Source of the DNA: an uncultured Nitratifractor sp.
Lineage (GTDB): Bacteria > Campylobacterota > Campylobacteria > Campylobacterales > Sulfurovaceae
Reading direction: 5' to 3'
DNA length: 64,000 nt
NCBI GenBank assembly: GCA_947311565.1
Contig: CAMZLH010000012.1
Location: forward strand, 3,173-67,172
This document shows positions 6,644 to 59,080 of the stretch, piece after piece; the stretch's first letter is position 1, and each line of letters starts with the position of its first letter. Below the pieces are notes generated by a model. That model did not search any database, was not told the DNA's origin, and saw nothing but the letters and a program-made list of their open reading frames with translations. Position numbers and translations under genes: made by a program.

Positions 6644-7039
6644 TTGAATCTTCAAGAGTTAATTTTAGCTACATTTTTAGTAGAGGCTTTAGAGGCAGCA
6701 CTACAATATAGAGCAACGCTTAAAGAGTCTTTATTCATACTATATAGCTACTATAACAAAAGTAGTTTTCTTTTCTTTAGTACAAATATAGGGTATATAT
6801 GGTTAATTTATATAGCTTTATCTTATAATCAATTAAATTTTGCTATTATTCTAGCACTACTTTTAAAGAGTCTAGATATTATGACCAAGTTAATTTTAAT
6901 AGATAGACTCTTTGTAAAGCATGATATTGAATATATAGAAGAGCTTACGCCAATACTAAATAAGAAAGCACCATTTTGGTTCTATTTAGTAGGAGTATTT
7001 ACATATCCATATATTATATATATTGCATTTTTAAATTAA
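6644..7039 (+). CDS. Hypothetical small membrane protein
   Basis: The TTG start directly abuts the dapE stop. There are 3-4 hydrophobic segments and no recognisable motif. Confidence 0.4.
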   Translation: MNLQELILATFLVEALEAALQYRATLKESLFILYSYYNKSSFLFFSTNIGYIWLIYIALSYNQLNFAIILALLLKSLDIMTKLILIDRLFVKHDIEYIEELTPILNKKAPFWFYLVGVFTYPYIIYIAFLN

Positions 7040-7048
7040 AGGATTTAC

Positions 7049-7711
7049 TTGGAGTTAGTAATAGGCAATAGCCCTCTTCTAGAGGCTAATGGAATATCTA
7101 AAAGTTTTGATTATCAGCTATTTCAGGATTTATCAATTAGATTATACTCTAAGCAGAGTGTATCTGTAATGGGTAGAAGTGGTACTGGCAAGTCTACACT
7201 TCTACATATTCTCTCTACACTTCTTAAACCAGATAGTGGAAGTGTTAAAATTTTAGATAAAGATATATATAATTTAAGTAGTGCAGAGATTGAGCGTATT
7301 AGAAGAGATAATATTGGAATTATATTTCAATCTCACTATCTATTTAAAGGGATGAGTGTACTTGAGAATATAGAATCTGCTACTCTTTTGTCTAATACAG
7401 ATATAGATAGAGAACTTTTCAAAATGTTAGAGATAGAAGATATTATTAATAAAAAAGTAGGAGATATATCTGGAGGGCAACAGCAAAGGGTATCTATAGC
7501 TAGGGTTTTAAGTAAAAAACCCAAAATAATATTTGCAGATGAACCAACAGGTAATTTAGATAGAGCTACAGCAGATTTAGTTATGGAGGCATTAAACAAC
7601 TATATTATAGATAATAAAGCCGCACTATTTTTAGTTACACATGACGATGAGATTGCAAATAAGACACAAAAACTATATCAACTAGAGAGTAAAAAATTAA
7701 ATATAAGATAA
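7049..7711 (+). CDS. ABC transporter ATP-binding protein (LolD/FtsE-like size class)
   Basis: Walker A GRSGTGKST, ABC signature ISGGQQQRVSIAR, Walker B IIFADEPT and an H-loop THD. Confidence 0.85.
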   Translation: MELVIGNSPLLEANGISKSFDYQLFQDLSIRLYSKQSVSVMGRSGTGKSTLLHILSTLLKPDSGSVKILDKDIYNLSSAEIERIRRDNIGIIFQSHYLFKGMSVLENIESATLLSNTDIDRELFKMLEIEDIINKKVGDISGGQQQRVSIARVLSKKPKIIFADEPTGNLDRATADLVMEALNNYIIDNKAALFLVTHDDEIANKTQKLYQLESKKLNIR

Positions 7712-7841
7712 ATTTTTTTATTATATGATATAATATTAAACTTAGTTTATAGAGTGGATATGAATATAAAGTGTTAGATAAAATGAGCGCTTATCCATAA
7801 TATTATTAAAAATTAGGTAAACATTTAGAGAAGGTGTAATT

Positions 7842-8393
7842 ATGAAAAAATCAGTATTTTATCTCTTAACTATTCTAGAGATTTTTTTGTTCACTGGGTG
7901 TATGTCGATTAATAATCCTTTTCCTATTAATCAATCTAGTGAGGTCAAAGTAGGATATTTATCTATTAAAAGTATAAATATGAACTTATCTCAGCAGATG
8001 CCAAATAGTAAAAGAGTTGGTAGAAATGAGACAAATATTGTATCTATAACTCTCTTTCCTAGCAAAGATAGTAAACATCTAGTAGTAGAGTTAGAGTTAA
8101 TATTTAAAAGTTTTGAGATACCAGAAGGATTACCTGCTATAGCAAGAACTAAAGCATTGTTAGATTATAATAGTAAGAGTAGAGAGTTTAAATTGAGTAA
8201 AATTATGCCTATAGAGGTTAGATATTTAAGAGAATCTCTACTAGAGTATATTACACCTAAGCAGAAGAAGTTAATATCTAGAATGTTAACTCAACAGTTA
8301 AATAGCTTTGCAATACATAAATCTAAAAAATCATTAGGTACTATAAAAGAGTATAGTATAAAAGATGACACTATAAAGTTTATTTTTAATTAA
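7842..8393 (+). CDS. Hypothetical lipoprotein
   Basis: Signal peptide with lipobox LFTGC. No recognisable domain. Confidence 0.5.
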   Translation: MKKSVFYLLTILEIFLFTGCMSINNPFPINQSSEVKVGYLSIKSINMNLSQQMPNSKRVGRNETNIVSITLFPSKDSKHLVVELELIFKSFEIPEGLPAIARTKALLDYNSKSREFKLSKIMPIEVRYLRESLLEYITPKQKKLISRMLTQQLNSFAIHKSKKSLGTIKEYSIKDDTIKFIFN

Positions 8394-8482
8394 AGTTAAA
8401 ATATTAACCTGAGTTCGACGCTGTATCATAGTTATAGCTTTATAAGGTTAATTTTTGGCTAAATTAAATTTTTGAATTACCT

Positions 8483-8625
8483 GTGGGGAGTCCCAATGGC
8501 GTTAAGTTAAGCATTTTTATCTAATTTTATAAATTATTTTCAGATATTAAAGTCCCTACGTTAGGACAGGTTATATTTAGAAAAATTTATTATTTCCTTA
8601 ACTTAACGTCATTGGTGGGTAGTCC
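8483..8625. repeat. MITE-like element: 18-bp terminal inverted repeats (17/18 match) enclosing about 85 bp, flanked by an 11-bp direct repeat (10/11 match)
   Basis: Left half is gtggggagtcc|caatggcgttaagttaag (8483-8511). Right half is cttaacttaacgtcattg|gtgggtagtcc (8597-8625). Confidence 0.45.
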
Positions 8626-8934
8626 TATAAATTTGATATAAAAAATTTTAGCTCATTTTGACTTCTGTGGCTATTAGCTTATCCTTTGTGTTAAGCTAAT
8701 TTAAACATCATAAACTCTAATCTAACTACATATTTTATCAGAAAATATTATATTATCTAATTTAACTAGACAACTAGATATTTAAAACTATAAATTTTAA
8801 TATGCCTTCTATAGTATTTAGAAAATTTTCTATATTGAACTACTTATAATTAGAGTTAATAATAGTAATTTCATAACATTTTTATTAAAATTAGGATATA
8901 AATAGACTATTATTTTTAATTTTTAAGGAATTAC

Positions 8935-10185
8935 ATGAGTTACGAAATAGAGAAATTTGATCCAGAAATTTTTGAAGCTATAAATAGTGAATTAACAAGA
9001 CAGAATGATCATTTAGAGATGATTGCTAGTGAAAACTTTACTCTTCCTGCTGTTATGGAAGCTATGGGAAGTGTGTTTACAAATAAATATGCAGAAGGGT
9101 ATCCAAATAAAAGGTACTATGGTGGCTGTGAAAATGCTGATACAGTAGAGCAGATTGCTATAGATAGAGTATGTGAACTTTTTAATTGTAAATTTGCAAA
9201 TGTACAGCCTCACTCTGGTAGTCAAGCTAATGGTGCAGTATATGCAGCACTTCTTAAACCATACGATAAAATTTTAGGTATGGATTTAAGTCATGGTGGT
9301 CACTTAACACATGGTTCAAAGCCAAGTTTTTCTGGTAAGAATTATCAAAGCTTTACTTATGGTGTTGAGCTAGATGGTAGAATTAACTATGATAAAGTTA
9401 TGGAGATTGCAAAAATAACTAAACCAAAAATTATAGTTTGTGGTGCTAGTGCTTATGCTAGAGAGATAGACTTTAAGAAATTTAGAGATATAGCAGATGA
9501 AGTTGGAGCAATTTTATTTGCAGATGTTGCTCATATTGCAGGACTTGTAGTTGCAGATGAGCATATGAGTCCATTCCCTTATGCAGATGTTGTTACAACT
9601 ACAACACATAAAACACTTGCAGGTCCTAGAGGTGGAGCAATTATGACTAATGATGAGGATATTGCTAAAAAGATAAATTCTGCAATCTTCCCAGGTCTTC
9701 AAGGTGGACCTTTAGTTCATGTAATTGCAGCTAAAGCAGTTGGGTTTAAATATAATCTTTCATCAGAGTGGAAAGATTATGCTAAGAGTGTAAAAGCTAA
9801 TGCTTCTAAATTAGCAGAAGTTTTAGTGGCTCGTGGATATGATGTAGTAAGTGGTGGTACAGACAATCATCTTGTTTTAGTTAGTTTTTTAAATAAAGAG
9901 TTTAGTGGAAAAGATGCAGATGCTGCTTTAGGAAATGCTGGTATTACTGTAAATAAAAATACAGTTCCTGGCGAGAATAGAAGCCCATTTGTAACAAGTG
10001 GTATTAGAGTTGGATCACCTGCACTAACAAGTAGAGGTATGGGAGTAGCAGAGTTTGAAAAAATAGCAAATTGGATTGCTGATATTTTAGATGATATTAA
10101 TAATAGTGAGGTTCAATTAAAAATAAAAGCAGAGATAAAAGAGTTAACAAGTAACTTTATTATCTATGATAAAGCAATCTATTAA
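8935..10185 (+). CDS. glyA: Serine hydroxymethyltransferase
   Basis: Full-length SHMT pattern including the PLP-lysine motif [14 protein letters not shown]. Confidence 0.95.
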
Positions 10186-10687
10186 TCAGCTAGAGGCACT
10201 ACTAAAGCTTATAACTAGTAGTGTCAAAGGTTACTATATAGAGCAAAAAAACATTGCTACTAAAGTCGATATGGATGGTCATATATACTACTCTAAATAT
10301 AGATACTTTAGCGGCACTATTACAGATATACTTATAAAACAACATCTATCAAAGAATATAAATTTAGCAATATCTCTTGAAAATTATAGTGCTATAGTTT
10401 TTAAATATAGTGGAGAAGAGAGGAGAGCTTTTCTATCTTTAATTAAGTATTATATTACAAAAGATGAGAGAGATGGTATATATATAATATCTGATAGCAA
10501 TTTAAGTTTAGAACTCTATATTAGGCTAAAATGTGCTAATAAAGATAATTTTAATGATATTTTACAAAAAGTTACAACTAATTTAGATAGTAGAATATCG
10601 CAAGAGTGGATTGCTTTACCAAATAGTTTATATCCAGATATTGGAAATTTAATTAATTTACCTAGAGAATATATAAATATTGACTAA
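10166..10687 (+). CDS. Conserved hypothetical protein downstream of glyA (DUF1882-like by position)
   Basis: It overlaps the glyA end by 20 nt. The position matches the glyA-hypothetical-SPOR-aroE order I recall for Campylobacter and Helicobacter. The family assignment is from memory only. Confidence 0.4.
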
Positions 10688-53735: not shown

Positions 53736-53905
53736 ATACCAATTAGTAAGACAAAAGGTGTGTCTTACTATTATACTATTATTAATAGAATTGGTGTATA
53801 ATATCTTCTAATAAATAGTTAGTAGAGCATTGAAATATAAATTTGTATTAAGACTATTTAATTCAAATTTAGCTAAAATTAATAAAATAATTAAGGAAGT
53901 TTATA

Positions 53906-54793
53906 TTGAGGGAATCATTAAAAAAATTAATTGATAAAACAATTATTTATAAATATTCACTTCCCAATAATACAGATAAAATCGACCAAGTAAATTTAAG
54001 TAACCACAAAGATGATTGCTATGATTACAGTAATGATAATGACTTAATTAAACTTATCTATAATTCAATAATTGAATACTCTTTTAATGAATTTGATTTA
54101 ACTAAAAAAGACTATTTACCTATTGCCTTACAAACTAAAATTAGATACGATGAACGTGACGAGCCATTAACAAAATTAAAATATGGATTTTTTGGTGAAG
54201 TTTTACTTTATTCATTTTTACATCATATTTATAGAGCCAATCCACTTATATCAAGGGGATATTTTTTTAATCCTTTAGAAAACTCAGAAACAAAAGGTTA
54301 TGATTCATATCATTTAATTGAAAATGATGGTGTTGTTGAATTATGGTTTGGTGAAGTAAAATTTAGAGATACATTATATAGCGGTGCAAAAAGTGCTATT
54401 GATGGCTTAGATAAAGCCTTTACCGATGATTATTTAAAAAATAATATTGTAGCTATGAATAATTTTAGAAATAATTTTGCTATAAAAGATAGTAAAATTG
54501 AAGAAATTTTAAACAAATGGGATGGCACACCTATTCAAATAATTAATGAAGTAAAAAAGCACAATATGACTTTGGTTTATCCTATTTTGCTAGTTTATCC
54601 AGATAGCAATCCCAACTACCATGAAAGAATTAAAAAAGCCGTAGATAAAATAAATGAAAAATTTGCACTAAAAACATACAATTTATCAATTAATTATAAA
54701 CTATTTTTTATATTTTTACCAATAAGTGAAGTTAAAAAAGTCAAACAGGAGGTACTTAAATGGATAGAATTAAAGAAGCCTCTATTGTCGTAA
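53906..54793 (+). CDS. hamA: HamA-like DUF1837 protein with a PD-(D/E)xK-type motif (Hachiman effector candidate)
   Basis: YGFFGEVLLYSFL, then GYD(133)SYHL..LWFGE(150)VK(152)F. 295 aa. The TTG start is preceded by AAGGAAG. A Ski2-like helicase follows immediately and overlaps it, which is the Hachiman gene pair architecture. Confidence 0.6.
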   Translation: MRESLKKLIDKTIIYKYSLPNNTDKIDQVNLSNHKDDCYDYSNDNDLIKLIYNSIIEYSFNEFDLTKKDYLPIALQTKIRYDERDEPLTKLKYGFFGEVLLYSFLHHIYRANPLISRGYFFNPLENSETKGYDSYHLIENDGVVELWFGEVKFRDTLYSGAKSAIDGLDKAFTDDYLKNNIVAMNNFRNNFAIKDSKIEEILNKWDGTPIQIINEVKKHNMTLVYPILLVYPDSNPNYHERIKKAVDKINEKFALKTYNLSINYKLFFIFLPISEVKKVKQEVLKWIELKKPLLS

Positions 54794-57063
54794 AAGCATT
54801 AAATAAATATTTTCGAGAGGAAATACCTAATTATGAATTTATTACTATAGTTTGTGGATATTTTGATAAGATTAAAGATATTGAATTAACCCCATCAGAT
54901 TTAAAGTTTTTAAAATATATTTCAAATATAGCAGGAATCCCACATTATTATGATTTACTTTCTGATAAATTTAATCATAATTTAGAGTTTAACGAATATG
55001 ATTTAAATACTTTATCATCAATAATTTATGAAAGTACCCTTCATATTGATAAAGATATCAAAATACATAAATATCAAAAAGAAGTTTTAAACCTTTTTGA
55101 TATTGATAAACAAAATAGATTTTTTTTATCTGCTAGTACTTCATTTGGTAAAACATTTCTTATTTATGAAATAATTAAAAAAATGCAATATAAAAATATT
55201 GTTCTTATTTTTCCAACTATTGCTTTATTATCAGAAAACTATGAAAAATTACTAACTAATGACTTATGTAGTGATTTTCAAGAAAATTTCACTATTCATA
55301 CATTAAGTGATGTAGAAAATATCGGTGAGAATAATATTTTCATATATACACCTGAAAGATTCTTATCGTTTATGGATAAGAGCATTGATATTAGTATTGA
55401 TTTTGTTTTTATAGATGAAATATATAAAATTGATAACGAGTATCTTATTGATAGTGTAAATAAGGAAAATGAAAGGGACACGGCTTATAGAGTTGCTCTA
55501 CACAATCTCTTACTTAACAGTAATGATATTTTATTGGTCGGACCGTATATTAACTTTCCTAATAGAAACAATGAGGAAAAGAATCAGTCATTTAATAACT
55601 TTTTAGATAAAAACAATTTTGAATTAGTCGATTATAATAAATTTGAAATTGTTAATAAAAGTTTTAATATTATTAGAAATGGTGGTAAACAAGTAATTGA
55701 TGATAAGTTGATAATAGATTTATCAGGATACAGCAGTAAAAAAACTGGTGAGAGACTAGGTAAAATTATTAAAGATATTAGAAATATTGATGAAAATACA
55801 ATAGTTTATACTAGTGGACCGTCAAGAGCTGAAACTAAAACTAAAGAAATTATTAATTTCAATACTTCTAATGAAGAAAATAGTACCAGACTTAATGAAC
55901 TAATAGAACATTTAGAAAATACTTTTCGATTACCTGATTGGAGTATAATCTTAGGATTAAAAAATAAAATTGGTATTCATCATGGGCTAGTTCCTAAATA
56001 TATTCAAAAAGAAATCATTAACTTATTTAATAATGGCGATATTAATGTTCTAATATCAACTACTACTATTACGGAAGGTGTAAATACATCTGCAAAAAAT
56101 CTTCTTGTATTAAGTGCAAATAAAGGAAATAAACCTTTAAAAACTTTTGATGCAAAAAATATTGCTGGAAGAGCAGGAAGGTTCTTGTATCATTATAGTG
56201 GCAGAGTTTTAATAATTAATAAAGAATTCAAAGAAATAATAGATGGTTCAGATGATGAAATTAAACACAAAAATTATGATGAAAGTTCAATTAAAGATGA
56301 AATTGATTATTTTATAACAGATGATGAGTTTTTAACTAATAATGATAAGTTAAAGAAAGAAGAAGTTATAAAACAATATAGAGAAAAAAATATACCAGAT
56401 GAAATAATGAATATGTATAAGGTAATTTCTTATAGTGATAAAATCGATGTGTATGACAATTTAAAAATATTATCTATCAATTATCCTGCTAACTACAAAG
56501 CTATTCAAGAGTTTATAAGAAAAATTGCTTATAACTTAACTCTTGATTATAATGGATTTAATAATTTTTTATGGGTTATTAGACCAATTATTAAAAATGA
56601 ACAACTACAAAGACTATCAAGACCAAATGAAGATGGTTCAGCATCAATTTTAACTCATCTTTTATATTTTTATTTAAAAGATGGTTTTATTGGTTCGGTT
56701 AGATACAAGATTGACAAACAAAGTAAATCAACAGATGAAGCAATAAGGGAGTCATCACAGTTTGTATATAATGTACTAAAATATCAGTTAGTAAAATATC
56801 TTGGTGTTTTTAACTTGATGTATAAATTTTTAGAATCTCAAAGATTAAATAAATCTCTTGATGATATTACTGGAATAGATAAATTACTTGTAAAGTTAGA
56901 ATATAATTCAACCTCAGAAAAAGGAAAATTAGCAAGTGATTATGGAGTACCAAATAAAATAATAGAATATTATGATAACGAAGAAGATAGAGATATAAAA
57001 GCAAGTTTTGATGATTATGAAATGAATAAATTTGAACAAATTGAAAATATTATAAATGGATGA
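54760..57063 (+). CDS. hamB: HamB-like superfamily-2 (Ski2/Hel308-like) helicase
   Basis: Walker A STSFGKT (55147-55155), motif II DEIY (55414-55425), TTTITEGVN and AGRAGRF. AGGAGG lies 8 nt upstream of the ATG. The gene overlaps hamA by 34 nt. Confidence 0.65.
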   Translation: MDRIKEASIVVKALNKYFREEIPNYEFITIVCGYFDKIKDIELTPSDLKFLKYISNIAGIPHYYDLLSDKFNHNLEFNEYDLNTLSSIIYESTLHIDKDIKIHKYQKEVLNLFDIDKQNRFFLSASTSFGKTFLIYEIIKKMQYKNIVLIFPTIALLSENYEKLLTNDLCSDFQENFTIHTLSDVENIGENNIFIYTPERFLSFMDKSIDISIDFVFIDEIYKIDNEYLIDSVNKENERDTAYRVALHNLLLNSNDILLVGPYINFPNRNNEEKNQSFNNFLDKNNFELVDYNKFEIVNKSFNIIRNGGKQVIDDKLIIDLSGYSSKKTGERLGKIIKDIRNIDENTIVYTSGPSRAETKTKEIINFNTSNEENSTRLNELIEHLENTFRLPDWSIILGLKNKIGIHHGLVPKYIQKEIINLFNNGDINVLISTTTITEGVNTSAKNLLVLSANKGNKPLKTFDAKNIAGRAGRFLYHYSGRVLIINKEFKEIIDGSDDEIKHKNYDESSIKDEIDYFITDDEFLTNNDKLKKEEVIKQYREKNIPDEIMNMYKVISYSDKIDVYDNLKILSINYPANYKAIQEFIRKIAYNLTLDYNGFNNFLWVIRPIIKNEQLQRLSRPNEDGSASILTHLLYFYLKDGFIGSVRYKIDKQSKSTDEAIRESSQFVYNVLKYQLVKYLGVFNLMYKFLESQRLNKSLDDITGIDKLLVKLEYNSTSEKGKLASDYGVPNKIIEYYDNEEDRDIKASFDDYEMNKFEQIENIING

Positions 57064-57073
57064 ATTTTGAGTC

Positions 57074-58879
57074 ATGATACAAGGAAAAATGATTAATAAA
57101 TATAATGTAGTAGAATTATTTGCAGGTGCTGGAGGATTAGCACTAGGTTTAGAACAAGCAGGATTTAAAACAAAAGCAGTTTTAGAGATTGATAAGTGGG
57201 CTTGTGAAACTTTGAAAAAAAATAGACCAAATTGGAATATTATAAAGGGTGATATTACTAAAATATCTCAAATTGGAATTAAACAATATTTAAAAGATAA
57301 TGAAGAGATAGATTTACTATCAGGTGGATATCCATGTCAATCTTTTAGTTATGCTGGAAATAGACTAGGTATCGATGATACTAGAGGAACTTTATTTTAT
57401 GATTTTGCATTGATTTTGGATGAGTTAAAACCAAAAATGTTTTTTGCTGAAAATGTAAAGGGCTTAGTTACTCATGATAAAGGTAAAACATTTAAAACTA
57501 TGATAAATGTATTTGAAGATGTTGGTTATGATGTAACCTATAAAGTTTTGAATGCTCTTGATTATAGTGTAGCTCAAAAAAGGCAAAGAGTTGTTATTGT
57601 AGGGATAAGAAAAGATATAAAAGAAAAAATAGGAGAAGAGTTTAAATTTCCAAAACCACATACTAAAAAACTAACTTTAAAAGATGTCTTAAAAAATGTT
57701 CCAAAGTCTGAATGCGCAACATACAATGAGGCTAAAAAAGCAGTATTAAAACATGTTAAGCCCGGTGGATGTTGGAGGGATTTACCTGATGATATTGCAA
57801 GGGAATATATGAAAACTACTTATTTTATGGGTGGTGGAAGAACGGGAATAGCAAGACGATTATCTTGGGATGAACCAGGTCTTACTGTTTTGTGTTCTCC
57901 AGCTCAAAAACAAACAGAAAGATGTCATCCAGATGAGCTTAGACCATTTAGTGTAAGGGAAAATGCAAGAATTCAATCATTCCCGGATGATTGGGTATTT
58001 GAAGGACCTATTACACAACAATACAAACAAATTGGTAATGCAGTACCAGTCAATTTAGCAAAAGAAGTTGGATTGTCAATTACTAATTATTTAGATAAAT
58101 TAAAGGAGAAAGAATATATGAGAAACTACAATTTAAGCTTTATAAGAGATGAAGACTTATTTAATCATGTAAAAGAAACTATACTAAAATATAGGTTCAA
58201 AATAACATTAAAAGAGTTTAATAAAAATTTAATAGACCCTATTAAATTGACATTTGATTCCAAAGTTTACGGTAAAACTATTGAAGAAATAATTGAATCT
58301 GAATCAATTAGACAAATGGATAAAACAAATAGTAATAACATAGGATATTTTCAGCAAAATATTTTTAAATATATTTATCATAAAGATACAAAAAAAACAA
58401 ACTGGACTGTTCCTCAACAAGGTTTTGATGTTGTGAACGAAATAGAAAAGATTTATGTAGAGATGAAAAATAAACATAATACTATGAACTCATCTTCATC
58501 ACAAAAAACATATATGAGAATGTCTAGTAAAATAAATAATGAACCAGAGGCAATATGTATGCTTGTTGAAGTAATAGCAAAAAAATCACAAAATATACCT
58601 TGGCAAATTTCATTAGATGGTGAATCTATTTCTCATGATAAAATAAGAAGAGTTTCTATTGATAAATTTTATGAGTTAGTAACTGGAGAAAAAGAAGGCT
58701 TTAAACAGTTAGTGGAAGCTTTGCCAAAAGTTATGGATGATGTATTGGAAGATATCCAACAAAATGGCATAGAAAACAGTGTTTTTCAAGAACTTCAAGA
58801 AATAGATAGTAATATGTTGAAAAGTTTATATTTATTATCATTTAAAAGATATGAAGGTTTTGACAGTATTGATATATAA
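57074..58879 (+). CDS. Fusion protein: cytosine-5 DNA methyltransferase (aa 1 to about 345) plus a PD-(D/E)xK nuclease-like C-terminal domain (aa about 349-601, Eco47II-like from memory)
   Basis: m5C MTase motifs in order: ELFAGAGG, GGYPCQSFS (Cys88), ENV, QRQRV, RPFSVRENARIQSFPDDW, GNAVP. The frame then continues without a stop into a domain with GFD(452)-x10-E(463)MK(465)NKHNT. AAGGAG (58103-58108) and an in-frame ATG (58118) sit at the junction. Confidence 0.8.
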   Translation: MIQGKMINKYNVVELFAGAGGLALGLEQAGFKTKAVLEIDKWACETLKKNRPNWNIIKGDITKISQIGIKQYLKDNEEIDLLSGGYPCQSFSYAGNRLGIDDTRGTLFYDFALILDELKPKMFFAENVKGLVTHDKGKTFKTMINVFEDVGYDVTYKVLNALDYSVAQKRQRVVIVGIRKDIKEKIGEEFKFPKPHTKKLTLKDVLKNVPKSECATYNEAKKAVLKHVKPGGCWRDLPDDIAREYMKTTYFMGGGRTGIARRLSWDEPGLTVLCSPAQKQTERCHPDELRPFSVRENARIQSFPDDWVFEGPITQQYKQIGNAVPVNLAKEVGLSITNYLDKLKEKEYMRNYNLSFIRDEDLFNHVKETILKYRFKITLKEFNKNLIDPIKLTFDSKVYGKTIEEIIESESIRQMDKTNSNNIGYFQQNIFKYIYHKDTKKTNWTVPQQGFDVVNEIEKIYVEMKNKHNTMNSSSSQKTYMRMSSKINNEPEAICMLVEVIAKKSQNIPWQISLDGESISHDKIRRVSIDKFYELVTGEKEGFKQLVEALPKVMDDVLEDIQQNGIENSVFQELQEIDSNMLKSLYLLSFKRYEGFDSIDI

Positions 58880-59080
58880 TCTACTAACAAAACCTTGGAA
58901 CTAATAAATTTTCTATCGAAAATTTACAGTTCAAGTCAACCGTTAGGAAATAATAAAATGTTAACACAATAAGAATTTGAAAAAATTAGAGAAAAATATG
59001 GTGATTGATTATGCAAAACCTTGAAGAGAAACAAGTGAAAAGTGCTATTTTCGAGCTTTTTAATCTATTAAAAAAATATT

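Follow-up and report, generated by a model that had tools for sequence, protein, structure and literature searches.

Restriction-modification (R-M) systems of the Eco47II/Sau96I type belong to Type IIP and comprise two genes, which encode a C5 methyltransferase (M) and a restriction endonuclease (R, REase) of the PF09553 family and share the target GGNCC. Here, we describe a locus of this kind in a 64,000-nt stretch of contig CAMZLH010000012.1 from an uncultured Nitratifractor sp. (hereafter, the window), in which M and R lie in one open reading frame (ORF). The locus contains the same two protein families as Eco47II/Sau96I-type systems in the M-then-R, head-to-tail order of many members, and its closest relatives (L170, L001-L004 and L085) are ordinary two-gene systems. 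It differs from them in being a single ORF, and other branches of the family carry R before M (58 of 165 loci). We consider it likely that the window holds a Type II R-M system of the Eco47II/Sau96I kind in which a one-base fusion of M and R gave a long M-R chain with predicted GGNCC specificity and an internal start for R.

Type IIC enzymes (MmeI, Eco57I, BcgI and BtgZI) also combine endonuclease and methyltransferase in one polypeptide, and because R and M are encoded in one chain, the window protein would be Type IIC by definition. According to a 2014 review, the usual Type IIC enzyme has an N-terminal PD-(D/E)xK nuclease and a gamma-class methyltransferase, with BtgZI as the exception, and it typically has an N6-adenine methyltransferase and a common specificity module and cuts at a distance (PMC4081073). 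The window protein resembles BtgZI, whose methyltransferase is N-terminal and whose PD-(D/E)xK variant is C-terminal (PMC4081073), but departs from the typical architecture in its M-then-R order, its 5-methylcytosine (m5C) class and its complete Type IIP-family nuclease. Whereas the described enzymes are gamma-class (BtgZI, alpha-class) amino-methyltransferases in which one recognition module is shared and cleavage falls away from the site, the window methyltransferase is of the m5C class with its own recognition domain, and the nuclease, of a family also found as a free protein, is predicted to cut within a palindrome as a dimer.

In 2011, all proven Type IIC enzymes carried N6-methyladenine (m6A) methyltransferases, with no m5C example (PMC3039593), and natural fusions of head-to-tail systems were predicted, with Sau96I among the candidates (Mokrishcheva et al. 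2011, PMC3039593). One of the closest described proteins is the engineered m5C fusion RM.Eco29kI, in which removal of a stop/start overlap joined a Type IIP REase to an m5C methyltransferase in a single chain. It showed both activities in vitro, with low methylation, was expressed without a separate methylase and restricted phage 100-fold in vivo, which was 100-fold less than its two-gene system (PMC3039593). RM.Eco29kI is artificial, runs R-to-M and has a GIY-YIG nuclease and no internal start, whereas the window protein is natural, runs M-to-R, has a PD-(D/E)xK nuclease and keeps an internal Shine-Dalgarno (SD) sequence and ATG. No described natural m5C methyltransferase-REase fusion was found in a literature search that did not cover REBASE; a protein combining DNA-methylase and Eco47II domains is noted in passing in a study of M. 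hominis (PMC12075135). That a classical two-enzyme Type IIP system can function as one chain has so far been shown by engineering only (RM.Eco29kI). Judged from its sequence, the window locus represents a recent, probably functional case of an m5C/Type IIP single-chain R-M variant that is natural, widespread and uncharacterised; we regard the finding as moderately interesting rather than surprising.

Domain structure of the M-R polypeptide and its seam

The M-R ORF spans 57074..58879 (+), stop codon included, and encodes 601 aa without an internal stop in the ORF listing, in line with the single polypeptide across M and R proposed in an earlier note made from the DNA sequence of the window. 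Two start codons are candidates, ATG 57074, preceded by a weak GAG, and ATG 57089 (M6), preceded by AAGGAA. Because the N-termini of homologues align from query residues 5-7 of the 601-aa ORF, near the latter codon, the true start may be ATG 57089.

The C5-cytosine DNA methyltransferase domain (57101..58081, +; aa 10-336) contains, in canonical order, motifs I, IV (PCQ), VI (ENV), VIII, IX and X. It was matched by PF00145 in Pfam (aa 10-336; E 9e-93; model positions 1-322 of 324), and TIGR00675 of NCBIfam scored 292 bits on this half against a cut-off of 100.65. The motifs lie at aa 14-21 (ELFAGAGG), 87-89 (PCQ), 126-128 (ENV), 168-173 (QKRQRV), 295-307 (RENARIQSFPDDW) and 321-325 (GNAVP). All m5C motifs listed in the earlier note were recovered in the sequence, with one correction of spelling, namely that its "QRQRV" reads QKRQRV. 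In an alignment of 65 fused homologues, the PCQ, ENV, QxRxR and GNAVP residues were invariant. An AlphaFold model of the 601-aa chain, built on these 65 homologues, had a mean predicted local distance difference test score (pLDDT) of 88.6, and a fold search with it matched the N-terminal half to M.HaeIII and M.HhaI (E ~1e-25). The Foldseek match to M.HaeIII (3ubt; E 9e-26; target template modelling (TM) score 0.75) corresponded to the two-lobed methyltransferase fold. We infer that the N-terminal m5C domain of the long chain methylates DNA.

The endonuclease half consists of an Eco47II-family PD-(D/E)xK domain (58133..58747, +; aa 354-558) and a C-terminal helical tail extending to aa 601. PF09553 (RE_Eco47II) matched aa 354-558 over model positions 1-201 of 202 (E 2e-81; 272.8 bits against a cut-off of 25.9), so that the C-terminal half, looked at separately, was assigned to a nuclease family over the full length of the model. 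The catalytic residues D452 and E463-x-K465 (58427..58468, +) fall within GFD-x10-EMK-NKHNT, as placed in the earlier note, which had linked this signature to Eco47II-type nucleases. They lie on two adjacent beta strands of the AlphaFold model (453-455 and 460-465) and were unchanged across the 65 fused homologues. P0121, a stand-alone R protein of 253 aa, shares 94% identity with the window R domain, and the Eco47II family has been placed in the PD-(D/E)XK superfamily (Steczkiewicz et al. 2012, PMC3424549).

A sequence search of the Protein Data Bank (PDB) with the R-domain profile gave no match. The fold search with the full-length model returned methyltransferases alone and no nuclease; the R domain (aa 349-601) was therefore modelled separately with AlphaFold2 (AF2), which gave a pLDDT of 85. 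The sole significant PDB match of this model was EcoO109I (1wtd; E 6e-5; probability 1.00; TM ~0.5; Foldseek), a homodimeric Type IIP enzyme acting on RGGNCCY. EcoO109I shares the PD-(D/E)xK fold and the GGNCC core of the target, but it is a separate polypeptide with 13% sequence identity and no sequence-level match.

The domains are joined by a seam or linker (58082..58132, +; aa 337-353) made up of the end of the long C-terminal methyltransferase helix and a short coil, which differed in sequence and length among the aligned homologues. In the AF2 model, the helix covered aa 326-348 and the pLDDT was lower in the block aa 341-350. On the plus strand, the seam contains the SD sequence AAGGAG (58103..58108), which is followed after a spacer of 9 nt by an in-frame ATG (58118..58120; Met349) homologous to the start codon of stand-alone R genes, exactly the ribosome-binding site and start codon, at codon 349, that had been noticed at the junction. 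The preceding codon, TAT (58115..58117; Tyr348), aligns with TAA, the stop codon of M, in the split loci L085 and L173, whose M and R genes share one frame.

The nearest relative, L170, has separate genes for M (348 aa) and R (253 aa) with an ATGA overlap. Its protein identity to the window was 96.5% for M and 94.5% for R, and the ratio of nonsynonymous to synonymous substitution rates (dN/dS) was 0.07-0.08 in both halves. By this comparison, both halves are intact and under purifying selection. In L170, the seam is GAG AAA AAT ATA TGA, where the M stop overlaps the R start; the window seam is one base longer (AAAGAATAT vs AAA-AATAT), which shifts M into the R frame. An alternative comparison for the window seam AAAGAATAT, in this A-rich stretch, is AAAAAATAA. 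The in-frame relatives L085 and L173 read AAA AAA TAA ATG, against AAA GAA TAT ATG in the window. In a neighbour-joining (NJ) tree of the M domain, the window was a single fused leaf within a split clade. Because the nearest relatives are split, their seams are one base apart from that of the window and the window is the lone fused leaf, the sequence comparison indicates that the M-R fusion is recent and requires no more than one or two point changes. The presence of a stop at the seam of homologues (TAA in L085 and L173; the ATGA overlap in L170) supports the earlier proposal that an M gene and an R gene were fused by loss of the M stop codon.

Single-chain genes in the Eco47II family

In a full-length search, 88 of the best 120 homologue clusters (90% identity), reaching down to 50% identity, were fused, with sources including Sulfurovum, Clostridioides difficile, Faecalibacillus, Pseudoleptotrichia and others (Campylobacterota, Firmicutes and more). 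The earlier note had called such a chain unusual, which holds for the literature, where reviews describe m6A-type single chains only, but not for the sequence databases. Some of the fused proteins already bear the NCBI name "Eco47II family restriction endonuclease". Genome and metagenome scans yielded 165 classed loci, among them 15 fused, 84 split in M-to-R order and 58 in R-to-M order. Fitch parsimony required at least 15 switches between the fused and split states, which were interleaved on the tree; this count relies on the NJ tree of the M domain and treats M-only proteins as split. Besides the split clade that contains the window, other large clades of this tree were wholly or mainly fused.

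Identical fused proteins recur, with 221 blocks of the assembly collection indexed for the 627-aa P0117 and 59 for P0090, which shows that sequencing errors do not account for the fused architecture. Within 4 kb of P0117, no other methyltransferase or nuclease gene was found. R-domain-only searches, one of them against a 50% representative library, returned stand-alone R proteins only (up to 356 aa) and no fused protein, whereas the full-length query of the same collection returned fused proteins whose R domains are 79-87% identical. The discrepancy may lie in how candidates were selected or clustered, and the R-domain-only lists were not used for the prevalence of fusion. A rough fused fraction was 2 of the 80 closest species-level genome loci. 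A third candidate, L007, was discarded as a low-coverage contig in which an acetyltransferase domain is joined to a truncated R.

In 13 of 40 distinct split seams, the M stop and the R ATG are contiguous and in frame, so that a single substitution would fuse the genes. Such stop-then-ATG seams were observed in L096-L142 (human gut metagenome), L168 (2430-2443) and L169 (2415-2419), for example GGG GTA AAA TAA ATG. They may descend from fused ancestral genes, or a little read-through of the stop could give some M-R chain even from split systems. Annotated M and R genes are also adjacent, 12 nt and 3 nt apart, on Lactococcus garvieae and Lactobacillus iners plasmids, and the L. iners pair shares one frame. 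The most distant members of the family (L017-L084) have R before M, and their M proteins carry an N-terminal extension of 75-100 aa. The M domain of P0054 (680 aa) groups with this R-then-M clade, yet the protein is an M-then-R fusion, which implies that rearrangement, too, leads to fusion besides the point-mutation routes.

The SD sequence at the window seam had the strongest predicted anti-SD duplex (-8.7 kcal/mol) among the 12 internal in-frame ATGs of the ORF and is therefore not due to chance. Across 17 distinct fused seams, the mean anti-SD energy was -7.4 kcal/mol, compared with -1.4 kcal/mol for 205 further in-frame ATGs inside these ORFs (Mann-Whitney p 3e-9); the mean for 40 genuine R starts of split systems was -7.0 kcal/mol. 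In three further abundant fused genes, GGAGG, GAGGAG or GAGGT is followed by ATG or GTG, in one case 14 codons upstream of the domain. At the protein level, a Met lies no more than 8 residues from the R domain in 76 of 88 fused proteins, whereas composition would predict 17%, and some of the fused seams without that Met carry GTG or a displaced SD-ATG. Seam valine as a sign of selected GTG starts was given no weight, as GTG alone among the valine codons is a single step from ATG.

Four-fold degenerate sites were near saturation (0.43-0.65 identity) in a monophyletic fused clade of Campylobacterota, and GAGG with ATG or GTG was kept at the seam in 6 of 8 sampled lineages of this clade; the other two are L167 and L166, taken up below. 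About six fused clusters lack a Met or Val near the seam in their protein sequences yet keep D...ExK, which suggests that the nuclease can persist within the long chain. The DNA-level look at these clusters covered P0071, which has an SD-ATG further upstream. Taken as sequence evidence, these patterns support, without proving, selection for internal initiation at fused seams, and it is plausible that internal initiation yields free R alongside M-R.

Proposed mechanism and competing explanations

The proposed mechanism begins with a one-base change at the junction (an insertion if the ATGA-overlap relatives are taken as reference, or TAA to TAT if the in-frame ones are), which would have removed the separation of M and R. 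Ribosomes starting at the M start would then read through into R and produce the 601-aa M-R polypeptide, whose N-terminal m5C domain would methylate GGNCC and whose C-terminal PD-(D/E)xK domain would dimerise and cleave unmethylated sites, like homodimeric Type IIP enzymes. Because the ribosome-binding site and ATG of R survive inside the ORF, internal initiation probably continues to supply free R of 253 aa, which could pair as R:R or R:M-R dimers. Type IIC polypeptides are expected to be M+R- as monomers and to gain restriction on assembly (PMC12707154); the proposed mechanism agrees with this point and with the activities of RM.Eco29kI (PMC3039593). Both activities of the long chain, its GGNCC specificity and the use of the internal start are what we infer from the comparisons above.

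The predicted target of the window system, GGNCC, is suggested by two clues, the name of the Eco47II family and the structural match to EcoO109I, whose RGGNCCY target fits the GGNCC specificity of Eco47II and Sau96I. GGNCC was not depleted in the 64-kb window (29 observed vs 18.6-32 expected), so there is no genomic footprint of long-term restriction at this site; GGNCC avoidance was dropped as a footprint of specificity, as it was uninformative about the target. Two other sites were rarer than expected over positions 1-64000, GGCC strongly so (5 vs ~29) and GATC (87 vs ~201). Their scarcity suggests that HaeIII-like and MboI/DpnII-like restriction acts, or once acted, on the genome.

Besides the lack of GGNCC depletion, several observations weigh against the proposed M-R system. 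The fused state of the window locus hangs on one base, and its 601-aa protein has no identical counterpart in the assembly collection, where the best fused match was 80%. The predicted TM score (pTM) of the AF2 model was 0.63, which leaves the relative orientation of the M and R domains undefined. Two other fused genes have lost parts of the arrangement: in L167 (1501-3243; P0014), ATA replaces the seam ATG and the internal start is lost, so that this start is not indispensable, and in L166 (1501-2790; P0026), R is cut off about 75 aa into the domain and the SD is weakened. By their sequences, these two fusions are heading to decay. Moreover, the retention of SD and ATG could come in part from the youth of many fusions or from constraint on the linker at the protein level.

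These observations bear on three other explanations. According to the first, which we consider unlikely, the fusion arose by accident, is neutral or slightly harmful and is heading to decay, with a long chain that acts as a methyltransferase only and restriction that either comes solely from internally initiated free R or is already lost. The recent origin of the fusion in the window lineage, the truncated R or lost internal start of some fused genes, the 100-fold weaker phage restriction by engineered RM.Eco29kI than by its two-gene system (PMC3039593) and the unavoided GGNCC sites in the window would all fit such an accident. However, old and diversified fused clades keep every catalytic residue of the nuclease, including the roughly six lineages without a seam Met or Val, dN/dS was 0.08 in the R half, and fused genes such as P0117 have no further R or M gene within 4 kb.

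Second, the locus might really be two genes, as in L170 or L085, with an artefactual base at the seam introduced in sequencing or assembly. The decisive nucleotide lies in an A-rich stretch, all seven relatives that share the HamAB cassette described below are split, and the protein recurs nowhere identically in the collection. The difference is, however, an inserted G or an A-to-T change and not a homopolymer length error, and the same architecture is present in at least 88 independent clusters, some of which recur identically (the 221 and 59 blocks given above). Given this recurrence, a real fusion needs no special pleading, and we regard an error as improbable, even more so than decay. Third, it is highly improbable that the C-terminal half is a DNA-binding or regulatory module of the methyltransferase, like the helix-turn-helix (HTH) fusions of SsoII and EcoRII; N-terminal regulatory fusions to C5 methyltransferases are known (PMC12707154), but here the match covers the whole Eco47II endonuclease model (1-201 of 202), D...ExK does not vary, the REase EcoO109I has a matching fold and stand-alone R proteins of two-gene systems share 94% identity with the domain.

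Beyond the single locus, we put forward a broader proposal tentatively, with clearly less confidence than the reading of the window as a fused Eco47II/Sau96I-type system. The Eco47II family might hold a natural, recurrent class of single chains that join an m5C methyltransferase to an autonomous Type IIP nuclease, in which a conserved internal SD/ATG yields both M-R and free R, single-base changes at the "stop-ATG" seam switch between the one-gene and two-gene states, and the M-R:R ratio together with R dimerisation times restriction after arrival in a new host. With many natural single-chain examples and matched split and fused relatives one base apart, the family offers a test bed for the effect of fusion on the timing and balance of methylation and cleavage, for internal initiation as a tuner and for the ease with which the architecture of a defence gene changes. 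Fused genes could also serve as practical one-gene R-M modules.

The Hachiman cassette and its surroundings

Directly upstream of the M-R ORF lie hamA (53906-54793, +), matched in full length by PADLOC HamA1 (E 7e-121) and containing DUF1837, and the helicase gene hamB (54760-57063, +), matched in full length by PADLOC HamB1 (E 0); Pfam supports both. The two genes are adjacent as in Hachiman type I and together span 53906..57063 (+); the end of hamB and the start of M-R are 10 nt apart. The order HamA-HamB-M-R was also found in L001-L004, L006, L170 and L171, the seven relatives with separate M and R genes. The 5.1-kb cassette (53818..58946, +) was 87% identical to L170 at the nucleotide level over 5173 nt (blastn). 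Because homology to L170 begins and ends at these borders, the HamA-HamB-M-R block looks like a mobile defence cassette as far as the alignment can tell. Cooperation of Hachiman and R-M is conceivable, in that restriction breaks might activate Hachiman.

Promoter and terminator scans were at chance level (41 promoter-like sites vs 45.9 expected), and a promoter-like site just before the seam (58073-58101) was not significant.

Further defence-related genes were observed beside the relatives of the system. L170 carries a second C5 methyltransferase, an REase of the LlaMI/MvaI-BcnI type and an HTH controller (8449-10479), and L174 carries a Vsr mismatch endonuclease and another C5 methyltransferase (6733-8616). 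In L178, SMODS and S_4TM genes, which resemble a cyclic-oligonucleotide-based antiphage signalling system (CBASS), lie nearby. The HamAB-M-R cassette of L006 (JALUWO010000273.1), 77-80% identical to that of the window, was assigned to a Candidatus Gracilibacteria metagenome-assembled genome (MAG), and the fused locus L016 (DZAX01000015.1) was assigned to a "Helicobacter cetorum" cave MAG. These two assignments reflect either movement of the cassette across phyla or mis-binned contigs.

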